Source: Escherichia coli
Lineage (GTDB): Bacteria > Pseudomonadota > Gammaproteobacteria > Enterobacterales > Enterobacteriaceae
Reading direction: 5' to 3' (one strand)
Length of the DNA stretch: 64,000 nucleotides
NCBI RefSeq assembly: GCF_003334405.1
Contig: NZ_QOWM01000001.1
Both the position numbers and the translations under genes were made by a program. A model generated the notes under the pieces. It did no database searches, was not told the DNA's origin, and was given only the letters and a program-made list of their open reading frames with translations. This document shows, piece by piece, positions 27,668-34,138 of this stretch (the stretch's first letter is position 1; every line of letters begins with the position of its first letter).

Positions 27668-28609
27668 ATGCGCGAAAAGGATTATGTCGTAATTATAGGT
27701 TCGGCGAATATTGATGTCGCCGGATATTCACATGAATCATTAAATTATGCGGATTCAAATCCAGGTAAAATAAAATTTACGCCTGGTGGAGTAGGGCGCA
27801 ATATTGCACAAAACCTGGCGTTGCTGGGTAACAAAGCCTGGCTACTGAGCGCCGTAGGCAGTGATTTTTATGGTCAATCGCTGCTAACGCAAACCAATCA
27901 ATCTGGCGTTTATGTCGATAAATGCCTGATTGTGCCGGGAGAAAATACGTCGAGTTATTTATCATTACTCGATAATACCGGTGAAATGCTGGTTGCTATA
28001 AATGACATGAATATTAGCAACGCTATTACAGCTGAATATCTCGCACAGCACGGTGAATTTATTCAGAGGGCAAAGGTCATTGTCGCGGACTGTAATATCA
28101 GTGAAGAGGCACTGGCATGGATTCTGGATAATGCCGCCAACGTACCCGTATTTGTCGATCCGGTTTCGGCATGGAAATGTGTCAAAGTGCGCGACCGTCT
28201 AAATCAGATCCACACTCTCAAGCCAAACCGCCTTGAAGCGGAAACCCTGAGTGGGATTGCGCTGTCAGGGCGTGAAGATGTGGCAAAAGTTGCTGCCTGG
28301 TTCCATCAACATGGCCTGAACCGACTGGTATTGAGCATGGGCGGCGACGGCGTTTATTACAGCGATATCAGCGGTGAAAGTGGCTGGTCTGCGCCGATCA
28401 AAACCAATGTTATTAATGTTACCGGAGCGGGCGATGCCATGATGGCGGGACTTGCTTCGTGTTGGGTAGACGGAATGCCGTTTGCCGAATCTGTTCGTTT
28501 CGCACAGGGATGTTCGTCAATGGCGCTCTCCTGTGAATACACCAATAACCCCGATTTATCGATTGCCAACGTTATATCGTTAGTGGAGAACGCAGAATGT
28601 CTGAATTAA
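27668..28609 (+). CDS. psuK: Pseudouridine kinase (PfkB family)
   Basis: 313-aa ORF with GG dipeptide and GAGD motifs. Confidence 0.92.
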   Translation: MREKDYVVIIGSANIDVAGYSHESLNYADSNPGKIKFTPGGVGRNIAQNLALLGNKAWLLSAVGSDFYGQSLLTQTNQSGVYVDKCLIVPGENTSSYLSLLDNTGEMLVAINDMNISNAITAEYLAQHGEFIQRAKVIVADCNISEEALAWILDNAANVPVFVDPVSAWKCVKVRDRLNQIHTLKPNRLEAETLSGIALSGREDVAKVAAWFHQHGLNRLVLSMGGDGVYYSDISGESGWSAPIKTNVINVTGAGDAMMAGLASCWVDGMPFAESVRFAQGCSSMALSCEYTNNPDLSIANVISLVENAECLN

Positions 28610-29535
28610 AAATTTCCCCTGAATTATTACAAATTTCCCCGGAAGTGCAGGACGCTTTAAAAAACAAAAAACCGGTTGTGGCGCTGGAATCGACCATTAT
28701 TTCTCACGGGATGCCGTTCCCACAAAATGCCCAGACCGCAATTGAAGTTGAAGAAACTATTCGTAAACAGGGCGCTGTACCTGCCACGATCGCCATTATT
28801 GGCGGCGTGATGAAAGTGGGGTTAAGCAAAGAAGAAATTGAATTACTGGGTCGTGAAGGGCATAACGTGACCAAAGTTAGTCGTCGCGATTTACCTTTTG
28901 TTGTTGCCGCCGGAAAAAATGGCGCAACCACTGTGGCTTCAACGATGATTATTGCGGCGCTTGCCGGAATTAAAGTATTTGCCACCGGGGGAATTGGTGG
29001 TGTGCATCGCGGGGCGGAACATACCTTCGATATTTCTGCCGATTTGCAAGAACTGGCAAATACTAATGTCACCGTTGTTTGTGCCGGGGCGAAATCTATT
29101 CTCGATTTAGGATTAACCACTGAGTATTTAGAAACCTTCGGTGTGCCGTTAATTGGCTATCAGACTAAAGCGCTGCCTGCGTTTTTCTGCCGCACCAGCC
29201 CGTTTGACGTCAGCATTCGTCTCGACAGCGCCAGCGAAATTGCCCGTGCAATGGCGGTGAAATGGCAAAGCGGTCTGAACGGTGGCCTCGTGGTAGCGAA
29301 CCCGATCCCGGAACAGTTTGCTATGCCGGAACACACTATCAATGCGGCGATCGATCAGGCGGTAGCTGAAGCTGAAGCTCAGGGAGTCATTGGTAAAGAA
29401 AGTACGCCATTCCTGCTGGCGCGCGTTGCTGAACTGACCGGCGGTGACAGCCTGAAATCCAACATCCAGCTGGTGTTCAACAACGCCATTCTGGCGAGCG
29501 AAATTGCCAAAGAATATCAGCGTCTCGCGGGTTAA
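28597..29535 (+). CDS. psuG: Pseudouridine-5'-phosphate glycosidase
   Basis: 312-aa ORF; 13-bp overlap with psuK. Confidence 0.92.
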   Translation: MSELKISPELLQISPEVQDALKNKKPVVALESTIISHGMPFPQNAQTAIEVEETIRKQGAVPATIAIIGGVMKVGLSKEEIELLGREGHNVTKVSRRDLPFVVAAGKNGATTVASTMIIAALAGIKVFATGGIGGVHRGAEHTFDISADLQELANTNVTVVCAGAKSILDLGLTTEYLETFGVPLIGYQTKALPAFFCRTSPFDVSIRLDSASEIARAMAVKWQSGLNGGLVVANPIPEQFAMPEHTINAAIDQAVAEAEAQGVIGKESTPFLLARVAELTGGDSLKSNIQLVFNNAILASEIAKEYQRLAG

Positions 29536-29628
29536 TTTCTGACGGGCAGAAAGCCGTCGCCCGTACTCATCAAGCATACCAAAACCTGGCGCTGACGCCG
29601 GGTTTACCGGCATGAAGGGAAAATCATT

Positions 29629-30879
29629 ATGGATATAATGAGAAGTGTTGTGGGGATGGTGGTGTTACTGGCAATAGCATTTCTGTTGTCAGTGAATAAA
29701 AAGAGCATCAGTTTGCGCACGGTTGGAGCCGCACTGCTGCTGCAAATCGCTATTGGTGGCATCATGCTCTACTTCCCACCGGGAAAATGGGCAGTAGAAC
29801 AGGCGGCATTAGGCGTTCATAAAGTGATGTCTTACAGTGATGCCGGTAGCGCCTTCATTTTTGGTTCGCTGGTTGGGCCGAAAATGGATGTCCTGTTTGA
29901 CGGTGCGGGTTTTATCTTCGCCTTTCGCGTACTTCCGGCGATTATTTTCGTTACTGCGCTCATCAGTCTGCTGTACTACATTGGCGTGATGGGGCTGCTG
30001 ATTCGCATCCTTGGCAGCATTTTCCAGAAAGCCCTCAACATCAGCAAAATCGAATCTTTTGTTGCGGTTACTACTATTTTCCTCGGGCAAAATGAGATCC
30101 CGGCGATCGTTAAACCGTTTATCGATCGCATGAATCGCAACGAGTTGTTTACCGCAATTTGTAGCGGGATGGCGTCCATTGCTGGTTCGATGATGATTGG
30201 TTATGCCGGAATGGGCGTACCAATTGACTACCTGTTAGCGGCATCGCTGATGGCGATCCCTGGCGGGATTTTGTTTGCACGTATTCTTAGCCCGGCAACC
30301 GAGCCTTCGCAGGTCACATTTGAAAATCTGTCGTTCAGCGAAACGCCGCCAAAAAGCTTTATCGAAGCGGCGGCGAGCGGTGCGATGACCGGGCTAAAAA
30401 TCGCCGCTGGTGTGGCGACGGTGGTAATGGCGTTTGTCGCAATTATTGCGCTGATCAACGGCATTATCGGCGGAATTGGCGGCTGGTTTGGTTTCGCCAA
30501 TGCCTCTCTGGAAAGTATTTTTGGCTATGTGCTGGCACCGCTGGCGTGGATCATGGGTGTGGACTGGAGTGATGCCAATCTTGCGGGTAGCCTGATTGGG
30601 CAGAAACTGGCGATTAACGAATTCGTCGCTTACCTGAGTTTCTCCCCATACCTGCAAACGGGCGGCACGCTGGAAGTGAAAACCATTGCGATTATCTCCT
30701 TTGCGCTTTGTGGTTTTGCTAACTTTGGTTCTATCGGTGTTGTCGTTGGCGCATTTTCGGCTATTTCGCCAAAACGCGCGCCGGAAATCGCCCAGCTTGG
30801 TTTACGGGCGCTGGCAGCAGCAACGCTTTCCAACCTGATGAGTGCGACTATTGCCGGGTTCTTTATTGGTCTGGCGTAA
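29629..30879 (+). CDS. psuT: Putative pseudouridine/nucleoside transporter, concentrative nucleoside transporter (CNT) family
   Basis: 416-aa membrane protein; paralogue of nupX at 32819. Confidence 0.92.
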   Translation: MDIMRSVVGMVVLLAIAFLLSVNKKSISLRTVGAALLLQIAIGGIMLYFPPGKWAVEQAALGVHKVMSYSDAGSAFIFGSLVGPKMDVLFDGAGFIFAFRVLPAIIFVTALISLLYYIGVMGLLIRILGSIFQKALNISKIESFVAVTTIFLGQNEIPAIVKPFIDRMNRNELFTAICSGMASIAGSMMIGYAGMGVPIDYLLAASLMAIPGGILFARILSPATEPSQVTFENLSFSETPPKSFIEAAASGAMTGLKIAAGVATVVMAFVAIIALINGIIGGIGGWFGFANASLESIFGYVLAPLAWIMGVDWSDANLAGSLIGQKLAINEFVAYLSFSPYLQTGGTLEVKTIAIISFALCGFANFGSIGVVVGAFSAISPKRAPEIAQLGLRALAAATLSNLMSATIAGFFIGLA

Positions 30880-30889
30880 TGCTCGATTT

Positions 30890-30926
30890 GTAGACCGGAT
30901 AAAACGTATTAAGCGTTGCATCCGGC
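30890..30926. repeat. REP-like palindromic element between convergent psuT and yeiL
   Basis: gtagaccggataaaacgtattaagcgttgcatccggc, with REP-type gccggatg ... ccggtctac arms. Confidence 0.6.
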
Positions 30927-30949
30927 AATCGCGCTATTGAAAATAATTT

Positions 30950-31609
30950 TTACTGCATCATCCCGGAGAATTTATTCTCCGGGTCCATCTCCAGCGCCAG
31001 TCCTGACAACTGCTTTCTGTTTTTAATGAGATACCCTTTCTTGCTTTTAATTAATAAACCGTCGTGAATGAACTGCGCGAGAACATATAAAAGATGTCGA
31101 TAAGAAACGCCTAAATACTCTGCCGCTTGCGTATGCTTTTCGTGATAAAGATCACCTTCCTGCGAGAGTAATATAAATGCTGCCAGGCGATTCACTAACG
31201 GAAATGATTGATTCTGAGTTAAAGAAACAATATTACGATAATTTTTATGACTTAAGGTGACGCAGAGTTTTCGTAAAAATAGCGTGTCGTTTAATAACAG
31301 CGGACGGTAATGTTTCATAGGGAGCGCAAGGCACCAACACTCTTCAATAGCCTGCACCGCACGCGGTTCATGGTCTTTATCGATTAACTCAATCTCGCCA
31401 ATAAAACAGGGGGCGGCAAAGAAATCGATCAGCGACACGCGACCATTAGCTAGCGTGGCGTAAAGCCTGGCGCGGCCTCGCGTCAGGTAAAACAGCCAGG
31501 ACGGCTGTTGCCCTTCCTGCACAATGTAGTCACGCGCTAAAAAATGAAACAGCCGCGTATCGGCTGAAACATCCGTTAAAAAGCAATCCTTAAACGCGGA
31601 TTCACTCAT
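30950..31609 (-). CDS. yeiL: CRP/FNR-family transcriptional regulator YeiL
   Basis: About 219 aa from MSESAFKD; cNMP-binding-like fold with a C-terminal HTH; the ORF track is 13 codons longer. Confidence 0.88.
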
Positions 31610-32719: not shown

Positions 32720-32818
32720 GTGTTGATAACAAGCCGGGCCGGTATCGCAAGATGCAGGCCTGGCTATTTCTGATGGGCAGAAAGCCGTCGCCCAATATGA
32801 CATGAAGAGATAATCACT

Positions 32819-34138
32819 ATGGATGTCATGAGAAGTGTTCTGGGAATGGTGGTATTGCTGACGATTGCGTTTTTACTGTCAGTAAACAAGAAGAAGATCA
32901 GCCTGCGTACCGTTGGCGCGGCGTTAGTGTTACAGGTCGTGATTGGCGGCATTATGCTTTGGTTACCGCCAGGGCGTTGGGTCGCTGAAAAAGTCGCTTT
33001 TGGCGTGCATAAAGTGATGGCGTACAGCGACGCGGGTAGCGCATTTATCTTCGGTTCTCTGGTCGGACCGAAAATGGATACCTTATTTGATGGTGCAGGA
33101 TTTATCTTTGGTTTCAGGGTGTTACCGGCAATTATCTTCGTCACCGCGCTGGTGAGTATTCTCTACTACATCGGTGTGATGGGGATTTTAATTCGAATTC
33201 TCGGCGGTATCTTCCAGAAAGCATTAAATATCAGCAAGATCGAGTCATTCGTCGCGGTCACCACCATTTTCCTCGGGCAAAACGAAATTCCGGCAATCGT
33301 CAAACCCTTTATCGATCGTCTGAATCGCAATGAATTATTTACAGCGATTTGTAGTGGCATGGCCTCGATTGCTGGTTCGACAATGATTGGTTACGCCGCA
33401 CTGGGCGTGCCTGTGGAATATCTGCTGGCGGCATCATTAATGGCGATCCCTGGCGGGATCTTGTTTGCCCGCCTGTTAAGCCCGGCAACGGAATCTTCGC
33501 AGGTTTCCTTTAATAACCTCTCTTTCACCGAAACACCGCCAAAAAGCATTATTGAAGCCGCTGCGACAGGGGCAATGACCGGGCTGAAAATCGCCGCAGG
33601 TGTGGCAACAGTGGTGATGGCATTTGTTGCAATAATTGCGTTGATTAACGGTATTATCGGCGGCGTTGGTGGCTGGTTTGGTTTTGAACATGCCTCGCTG
33701 GAGTCCATTTTAGGTTACCTGCTGGCTCCACTGGCGTGGGTGATGGGTGTGGACTGGAGTGATGCGAATCTTGCCGGGAGTTTGATTGGACAGAAACTGG
33801 CAATAAATGAATTTGTCGCTTATCTCAATTTCTCACCCTATCTGCAAACGGCTGGCACTCTCGATGCTAAAACTGTGGCGATTATTTCCTTCGCGTTGTG
33901 CGGTTTCGCTAACTTTGGTTCTATCGGGGTGGTGGTGGGGGCGTTTTCTGCGGTTGCGCCACACCGTGCGCCGGAAATCGCCCAGCTTGGTTTACGGGCG
34001 CTGTCGCGGAAACTGTATCCTTCAAGAAAGCTATATACCAGGCCCGCCATAAAACCATCGTCAGCACCAAAACTGTCTACTGTCGTATGCGCTGGCGCGG
34101 TCAGCAAAAATTGTTCTCCATCCTTTTCGCTGCAATAA
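32819..34138 (+). CDS. nupX: CNT-family nucleoside transporter NupX with an aberrant 3' end (last ~21 expected codons replaced by 44 unrelated codons); possibly a pseudogene
   Basis: Colinear with paralogue PsuT to residue 395 (...PEIAQLGLRAL), then diverges; the 3' extension is antisense to yeiI coding sequence. Confidence 0.8.
   Translation: MDVMRSVLGMVVLLTIAFLLSVNKKKISLRTVGAALVLQVVIGGIMLWLPPGRWVAEKVAFGVHKVMAYSDAGSAFIFGSLVGPKMDTLFDGAGFIFGFRVLPAIIFVTALVSILYYIGVMGILIRILGGIFQKALNISKIESFVAVTTIFLGQNEIPAIVKPFIDRLNRNELFTAICSGMASIAGSTMIGYAALGVPVEYLLAASLMAIPGGILFARLLSPATESSQVSFNNLSFTETPPKSIIEAAATGAMTGLKIAAGVATVVMAFVAIIALINGIIGGVGGWFGFEHASLESILGYLLAPLAWVMGVDWSDANLAGSLIGQKLAINEFVAYLNFSPYLQTAGTLDAKTVAIISFALCGFANFGSIGVVVGAFSAVAPHRAPEIAQLGLRALSRKLYPSRKLYTRPAIKPSSAPKLSTVVCAGAVSKNCSPSFSLQ

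Follow-up and report, generated by a model that had tools for sequence, protein, structure and literature searches.

Organization of the psuT and nupX loci

The window, a 64,000-nucleotide stretch of an Escherichia coli genome, contains two paralogous transporter genes in the order psuK-psuG-psuT (+ strand), yeiL (- strand), rihB-nupX (+ strand). The nucleoside transporters PsuT and NupX have received little characterisation; they have been linked to the salvage of pseudouridine and pyrimidine nucleosides, and to our knowledge nothing is known of their control. The genes and the features of the two leaders are as follows.

28597..29535, + strand: psuG, pseudouridine-5'-phosphate glycosidase, upstream of the psuT leader (open reading frame list and annotation of an identical strain)
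29536..29562, + strand: 27-mer, psuT copy, TTTCTGACGGGCAGAAAGCCGTCGCCC
29542..29564, + strand: hairpin H1 of the psuT leader, stem ACGGGC (29542-29547) / GCCCGT (29559-29564), loop AGAAAGCCGTC (29548-29558)
29565..29581, + strand: C/A-rich, G-poor linker including CTCATCAAGCATACC (alignments)
29582..29605, + strand: hairpin H2, AAACCTGGCG / CGCCGGGTTT with loop CTGA, terminator-like and followed by three T residues (folds)
29614..29631, + strand: psuT ribosome-binding region and start codon, GAAGGG ... ATCATT ATG
29629..30879, + strand: psuT, NupC-family CNT transporter, 416 aa
31778..32719, + strand: rihB, ribosylpyrimidine nucleosidase, preceding the nupX leader (annotation of an identical strain)
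32732..32765, + strand: hairpin H0 after rihB and 5' of the nupX H1, AGCCGGGCC ... GGCCTGGCT (fold)
32767..32793, + strand: 27-mer, nupX copy, TTTCTGATGGGCAGAAAGCCGTCGCCC
32774..32794, + strand: hairpin H1 of the nupX leader, stem TGGGC (32774-32778) / GCCCA (32790-32794), same loop (32779-32789)
32804..32821, + strand: nupX ribosome-binding region and start codon, GAAGAGA ... ATCACT ATG
32819..34138, + strand: nupX, CNT transporter paralogue, with its 3' end changed by a 281-bp deletion

The start-codon block TCATTATGGA is conserved: each of the 15 leaders compared departs from it by no more than two changes (columns 99-117 of alignment A2). The psuT start codon can lie in a small hairpin, since CAUUAU can pair with AUAAUG of codons 3-4 (window 29620-29640), and UGACAU and AUGUCA of E. 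coli nupX pair with each other around the ribosome-binding site (window 32810-32830). No promoter-like site was found on the + strand in either leader.

Among the other features of the region, we note that the psuT-yeiL interval (30893-30980) gives sub-threshold matches on both strands to Rfam naRNA4, a REP-derived RNA (25.7 and 21.3 bits vs a gathering score of 59.5). Relative to E. coli 720632, 281 bp lying between a pair of 10-bp direct repeats (ACGGGCGCTG) are missing at the junction 33993|33994. With them nupX has lost its final ~22 codons and the convergent gene yeiI its 3' end, together with the repeat region that separates the two genes, and aberrant open reading frames of 439 aa (nupX) and 381 aa (yeiI) are left. 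In each of the eight best hits among 5426 E. coli genomes this junction aligns in two parts that together span 372 bp, and the deletion appears to be rare in E. coli. In E. coli U12A (locus L119, 3658-3723) nupX is nearly all lost, with a 66-nt annotated remnant, and rihB and a leader with a slightly diverged H1 are kept. It seems that E. coli can dispense with nupX and that the gene is often damaged.

A 27 bp sequence shared by the two leaders

A first-pass annotation of this DNA had described a 27-bp motif present upstream of both transporter genes with a single mismatch. The two copies are confirmed, with a small correction in that the psuT copy lies at 29536-29562 and not, as given earlier, one base further on at 29537-29563. 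A second copy of the 27-mer was matched in none of 100 dinucleotide-preserving shuffles of the window. The first base of the psuT copy lies directly 3' of the psuG stop codon (TAA, 29533-29535), and the nupX copy starts 47 nt past the rihB stop codon. There is no similarity between the two loci 5' of the motif; 3' of it, similarity returns at the ribosome-binding site, and the divergence reported for the intervening segment is also found, alignments placing ~41 nt of the psuT leader as missing in nupX. The psuT and nupX coding sequences are 78.8% identical, with an identity of only 0.474 at four-fold degenerate sites, and the 26/27 matches in the 27-mer therefore cannot be neutral retention.

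The motif occurs at a median of two and a maximum of three places per genome in BLAST searches of 5426 complete E. coli genomes, which rules out a dispersed repeat of the REP or ERIC type, and no third copy of the 27-mer was found in these genomes at BLAST sensitivity. The exact 27-mer is restricted to Escherichia, and the E. albertii version has two substitutions. The search of other Enterobacteriaceae proposed with the motif thus has a divided outcome: a core hairpin is kept in psuT and nupX leaders, but the full 27-mer is confined to Escherichia. The motif is not conserved as a whole, its 5' part TTTCTGA being missing in most other genera, with a variant AATTTCT-C only in Citrobacter psuT leaders.

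H1 is a conserved hairpin of psuT and nupX-type leaders

H1 is a 5-6 bp G+C stem, (A)CGGGC/GCCCG(U), enclosing an 11-nt loop with the consensus AGunAGCgGUC, and its outermost pair is variable (N/N). The psuT H1 folds with -10.1 kcal/mol and scores 40.3 bits with the covariance model, and the nupX H1 scores 35.3 bits. The single mismatch between the E. coli 27-mers sits in a compensatory pair, C:G in psuT (29543/29563) and U:A in nupX (32774/32794).

Leaders for comparison came from a protein-anchored scan of species-representative genomes, from contigs encoding homologues from other genera, and from a metagenome scan that used a pattern on the start-codon region and so did not select for the hairpin. 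Both E. coli leaders contain H1, as do 14/14 leaders taken from eleven genera; of the 43 leaders from other genera and metagenomes, all outside the window, 42 have it (14/15 genome-derived and 28/28 metagenome leaders). The genera include Citrobacter, Superficieibacter, Buttiauxella, Klebsiella, Kluyvera, Enterobacter, Entomohabitans and Leclercia, together with metagenome loci. The H1-bearing clade corresponds to transporters of at least ~87% protein identity, with the Entomohabitans psuT leader as the sole exception. Across the transporters compared, identity at four-fold degenerate sites is only 0.37-0.62, and neutral sites carry ~0.9 substitutions per site.

Among 30 distinct sequences, 96.1% of the cells of the 6-bp stem are paired, compared with 34-56% in slid controls. 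Both partners vary in three of the six pairs (CG/UA/UG, GC/AU and GC/AU/GU): pair 10-30 is CG in 23 sequences, UA in three and UG in three, pair 11-29 is GC in 28 and AU in two, and pair 9-31 is GC in 12, AU in ten and GU in two, all in related sequences with fewer independent events than these cell counts. The covariation score was reached by 0/500 shuffles, and RNAalifold on 21 full-length leaders gives the H1 helix and no other. In six of ten 39-nt contexts H1 is the most stable fold or comes within 1-2 kcal/mol of the most stable one (-5.6 to -12.2 kcal/mol); in the remaining four, longer folds by which it is extended or replaced are favoured by 2-11 kcal/mol. The loop is also conserved, with columns G16, G20, C21, G23 and U24 kept in at least 28 of the 30 sequences.

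The hairpin is specific to one strand. The U.G and G.U cells at pairs 9-31 and 10-30 are valid on the sense strand only, and the covariance model gives sense-strand scores of 27-46 bits, with no more than 13 bits for the opposite strand. This bears on the shared operator that had been offered as one explanation of the motif, in which the inverted repeat CGGGC-N11-GCCCG would be bound as double-stranded DNA by a dimeric factor such as YeiL or YeiI. The inverted repeat does exist, and yeiL (cNMP-binding family) and yeiI (HTH plus PfkB) are neighbours in many loci. However, the arms covary and keep no fixed half-site, a T facing a G makes a pair only as sense-strand U.G, the 11-bp spacer is conserved but asymmetric, the site is intercistronic with no promoter-like site on the + strand, and yeiL and yeiI are each missing from some H1-bearing loci. 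We regard such an operator as extremely unlikely.

The other explanation, an RNA element common to both transporter leaders, is borne out by H1 within the 27-mer, with its compensatory changes, sense-strand wobble pairs and retention across genera. Comparison of the leaders demonstrates purifying selection on H1 across the Enterobacteriaceae, and on this comparative evidence H1 is a conserved sense-strand mRNA stem-loop of psuT and nupX-type transporter leaders. Covariance-model searches found no H1 away from psuT and nupX leaders in 450 kb of window and loci, and no regulon or third copies in 450-690 kb of related loci; weak matches at two loci (L016 and L061) are probably due to chance. H1 was not found before more distant CNT transporters (Hafnia, Serratia, Vibrio, Pasteurellaceae, Burkholderia and others). 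No family of Rfam release 15 reaches its gathering score in or near the leaders of the window and six other loci, and H1 is not described in the literature searched, including the Breaker-lab 50-genome survey of noncoding RNAs. H1 thus appears to be previously undescribed.

Alternative folds and readings of the motif

The stem originally suggested for the motif was a different one, GACGG/CCGTC. It can form in E. coli (-8.5 kcal/mol in psuT and -6.7 kcal/mol in nupX) but it is not the best fold; H1 with its 3' context has energies of -10.1 to -11.1 kcal/mol (psuT) and -7.7 to -8.3 kcal/mol (nupX). GACGG/CCGTC is possible in Escherichia because both copies have a C at loop position 8, which is mostly G outside Escherichia, and in other genera its energy is +1.3 to -3.1 kcal/mol, such that it is competitive only in Escherichia. 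Its positions are 70.7% paired with no compensatory change, shuffles do equally well, and 11 of 15 species cannot form the central pair. The covariation analysis proposed for the stem therefore gives a positive answer for CGGGC/GCCCG but none for GACGG/CCGTC. A further candidate stem, TTTCTG/CAGAAA, reaches just -4.3 kcal/mol for E. coli, and in most other genera its energy is positive or the stem is missing.

Several readings other than a hairpin of this type were considered and rejected. The motif is not an upstream open reading frame, leader peptide or other coding sequence, as there is a 2-nt deletion within it in Citrobacter and an ATG occurs only where column 10 is T; the single difference between the 27-mers is synonymous in one reading frame. 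Minus-strand open reading frames at 29149-29613 and 32764-33144 overlap the two copies at non-equivalent positions. A recoding hairpin (SECIS or read-through stimulator) is discounted since the psuG stop codons are TAA or TGA and there is no fixed spacing to the stop; nupX-type H1 copies lie from several tens to ~260 nt from the rihB stop codon. Of the RfaH ops element, lambda boxB, SECIS, the class II tRNA D-loop, 5S rRNA and ChiX, none fits in register when compared by eye.

Near-identity of the two E. coli copies

The E. coli paralogous copies differ at 1/27 positions (in the window and in an O145 strain) or 3/27 (in U12A), and the corresponding pairs differ at 10/27 positions in Kluyvera and 12/27 in E. 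hormaechei, with the identity of the paralogous coding sequences being alike in all three (0.77-0.81). Every H1 element outside Escherichia differs from the E. coli copies at five or more of the 27 positions. Eleven positions vary among the genera (columns 3-9, 17-19 and 22) and the window copies are the same at all eleven, for which the chance at 0.474 per neutral site is ~3 in 10,000 by simple arithmetic. The E. coli paralogues resemble each other more within the 27-mer than outside it, and more than either resembles its orthologues. The 26/27 identity thus overstates the constraint, given the 10-12/27 differences of the Kluyvera and Enterobacter pairs.

The E. coli 27-mer also has a mosaic appearance, with a TTTCT flank and AGAA loop start as in Citrobacter psuT, CTGAYGGGC and the loop AGC as in nupX-type leaders, and one base that is shared and derived. 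Short gene conversion (homogenisation) in Escherichia probably added identity at free positions, including the TTTCTGA flank. The simplest account would be purifying selection on ~16 positions together with a short conversion event in the Escherichia lineage, for which the sample was E. coli and E. albertii, the latter without nupX. Homogenisation is inferred from distances, and the same pattern would arise if a lineage-specific partner had selected both copies in parallel.

We note some reticulate similarities among the genes themselves. Four-fold-site identity between C. werkmanii psuT and C. portucalensis nupX (loci L003 and L089) is 0.604, and between two Citrobacter psuT genes it is 0.609. 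E. coli NupX has 0.87-0.89 protein identity to every other member and is no closer to other proteins in a nupX context than it is to PsuT. These similarities make exchange between the paralogues plausible, and they hint that E. coli nupX may be evolving faster.

If conversion were the whole story, the 27-mer would be merely a recent conversion tract between paralogous leaders, with no function of its own. The identity of the E. coli paralogues at all positions that vary among genera fits this, and the deletion of nupX in U12A and its truncation in the window indicate that selection on the leader may be weak. Conversion acts within one genome, however, and so cannot explain the conservation of the H1 core between genera, where the hairpin is kept in 28/28 metagenome and 14/15 genome-derived leaders, with compensatory changes, at four-fold identities of 0.37-0.62. 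For the core this explanation is largely refuted, and overall we consider it very unlikely.

The linker, H2 and the remainder of the leaders

In psuT-type leaders H1 lies 6-11 nt past the psuG stop codon and is followed by the linker, in which blocks ATCA and ATACC are conserved in leaders with H2. The arms of H2 can also be written as AAACCUGGCG/CGCCGGGUUU (29582-29605). H2 is G+C-rich, with -13.7 to -19 kcal/mol in 18 leaders, and one of its pairs varies as U.G, C-G and U-A among them, which fits the sense strand. Most nupX-type leaders, including that of E. coli, have the linker and H2 deleted and H1 kept, with an H0 of variable sequence; in those of other genera a hairpin is found at the H0 place but its sequence is different. 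One rihB-nupX spacer (locus L098, 1045-1290) is 333 nt long, with an insert between the rihB-proximal hairpin and H1, and has both H1 and H2 intact. The insert resembles an enterobacterial intergenic repeat (ERIC-like).

The form of H2 raises the question of attenuation, in which H2 would be a leaky intrinsic terminator limiting read-through from psuG to psuT, with H1 as a modulator. H2 is a 7-10 bp G+C-rich hairpin followed by TTT or TTTT, with the U.G/C-G/U-A variation, in 18 leaders, and lies 24 nt before the psuT start codon. The best Rfam match, to the two-hairpin sRNA model isrJ, is sub-threshold (18.9 bits vs a gathering score of 37) and covers exactly 29532-29606. Against attenuation, the tract of three to four U residues fails a criterion of 5 T in 8, and a terminator scan with this criterion flagged neither H1 nor H2. 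H1 and H2 fold independently, with no conserved antiterminator or alternative H1-H2 pairing in the leaders compared, and the H2 equivalent of Entomohabitans has no U tract. The Term-seq supplements of PMC7815308 list no 3' end there, nor any for psuT or psuG. Both genes are poorly expressed in the laboratory. H2 is also deleted in E. coli nupX and most nupX-type leaders, which retain H1, and a mechanism needing H2 therefore cannot be general. We thus judge attenuation to be improbable.

Loci where H1 is replaced, and locus organization

In the Entomohabitans psuG-psuT spacer (locus L123, 3097-3208) an unrelated 14-bp hairpin, CAGCGCTGTTCCCGG...CCGGGAAACAGCGCTG, is found at the H1 place, and the linker ATATCAGGCATAC is kept; the H2 equivalent lacks the T tract. 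A more distant psuT clade with 73-74% protein identity is represented by Hafnia, Serratia and 'Klebsiella' sp. BIGb0407 (loci L004-L007, ~150 nt upstream of position 3001). This clade has a conserved spacer of its own, in which an AT-rich block, CCTTAAGTTTTATCC...AAATAAAAA, precedes a long hairpin with conserved outer arms, CCTGAAAGG / CCTTTCAGG, and a variable top. The replacement of H1 by other hairpins in some lineages suggests that a stable hairpin at this place matters most.

The arrangement of the two operons also varies. In E. albertii, K. michiganensis and Leclercia (loci L001, L082 and L088) psuKGT is directly beside yeiI-nfo, without yeiL-rihB-nupX; Buttiauxella, K. spallanzanii and C. 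portucalensis (loci L081, L086 and L089) carry yeiL-rihB-nupX without adjacent psuKGT; and in Enterobacter rihB-nupX comes first and is followed by psuKGT. On the evidence of the leaders compared, H1 goes with the psuT/nupX-type transporter gene whether the upstream gene is psuG or rihB.

A proposed role for H1

A plausible scenario, which we propose with moderate confidence from comparative data, is that H1 is an intercistronic cis-acting mRNA element that sets transporter expression apart from that of the upstream enzymes, through processing or stability and the control of read-through. H1 would act in cis on the polycistronic transcripts psuK-psuG-psuT and rihB-nupX and close off the upstream cistron, with the unstructured C/A-rich linker as an exposed segment. 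Where present, H2 could either terminate transcription leakily or, as a hairpin, protect the 5' end of the transporter segment. To judge by the conservation of its loop, H1 may in addition be read sequence-specifically by a further partner in most lineages. Anywhere from 26 to 69 nt separate H1 from the start codon, a spread that speaks against the hairpin covering the ribosome-binding site directly.

The main rival gives the loop the leading part: a protein, small RNA or small ligand (for example a pyrimidine nucleoside) would bind it and switch transporter expression, much as a regulatory switch or mini-riboswitch does. Seven of the 11 loop positions are conserved in at least 23/30 sequences despite the ~0.9 substitutions per neutral site, and since a hairpin serving stability alone does not usually retain the sequence of its loop, this degree of constraint is more in keeping with a recognition site. 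H1 is also tied to one transporter clade only, has a conserved single-stranded linker 3' of it, and carries the derived C at loop position 8 in both E. coli copies, which could reflect co-evolution with a partner. However, no conserved pseudoknot or long-range partner of the loop was found at a consistent position in 25 leaders, and this, together with the variable start-codon distance (26-69 nt), speaks against a riboswitch architecture. H1 and H2 do not compete for pairing and there is hence no evident expression platform, and a 23-nt hairpin is small for an aptamer. Furthermore, the loops of the E. hormaechei paralogues differ at 7/11 positions, Entomohabitans psuT has its unrelated hairpin in place of H1, and no candidate RNA-binding protein is present in all loci. 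Loop recognition as the principal function is thus possible, though doubtful.

A more specific version would have H1, the conserved loop and the C/A-rich tail form a minimal sensor hairpin for a protein, an sRNA or a nucleoside ligand such as pseudouridine or a pyrimidine nucleoside, which we offer as a long shot. Were it true, PsuT and NupX uptake would be tuned independently of the catabolic enzymes, and the shared derived Escherichia loop would reflect co-evolution with the partner and not gene conversion.

Returning to the proposed intercistronic element, a covarying hairpin that travels with the transporter gene provides a concrete handle on transporter expression separate from that of the upstream enzymes. 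The two E. coli leaders also carry a more general caution, in that gene conversion can inflate the near-identity of paralogous leaders within one genome, and the structure suggested by a single genome can be the wrong one.

Comparison with known systems

The resemblance of the two E. coli leaders recalls the concerted evolution of the duplicated genes tufA and tufB by short gene-conversion tracts. As with tufA/tufB, the E. coli 27-mer paralogues are more alike within the genome than they are to their counterparts in related genera. Unlike tufA/tufB, the tract is ~27-30 bp and non-coding, and the adjacent coding sequences stay 78-79% identical.

Among regulatory RNAs, preQ1-I is a very small riboswitch aptamer consisting of one hairpin and an A-rich tail. 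H1 is likewise a single short hairpin with a conserved loop and an A/C-rich single-stranded tail, upstream of a transporter for nucleoside-like compounds; it differs in having no covariation-supported loop-tail pseudoknot and no Rfam match, and in being intercistronic and not at the transcript 5' end. In the S10 leader with L4, and in leaders with PyrR binding loops, a protein-responsive hairpin is followed by a terminator. The psuT leader shares with these the order of a conserved-loop hairpin, a linker and a terminator-like hairpin before the gene, but H1 has no antiterminator alternative and H2 is dispensable in most nupX-type leaders. We know of no H1-binding protein.

The REP hairpins between malE and malF of E. 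coli are intercistronic stabilisers that give segmental mRNA stability. Unlike REP sequences, H1 is not dispersed (a median of two places per E. coli genome), has a conserved loop, and is inherited with the downstream transporter gene and not with the upstream gene. Like the REP stabilisers, it can be replaced in sequence by another hairpin in some lineages, and the malE-malF REP and the H1 leaders have the same setting, with a stable G+C hairpin located after an enzyme or binding-protein cistron and before membrane-transporter cistrons of one operon.
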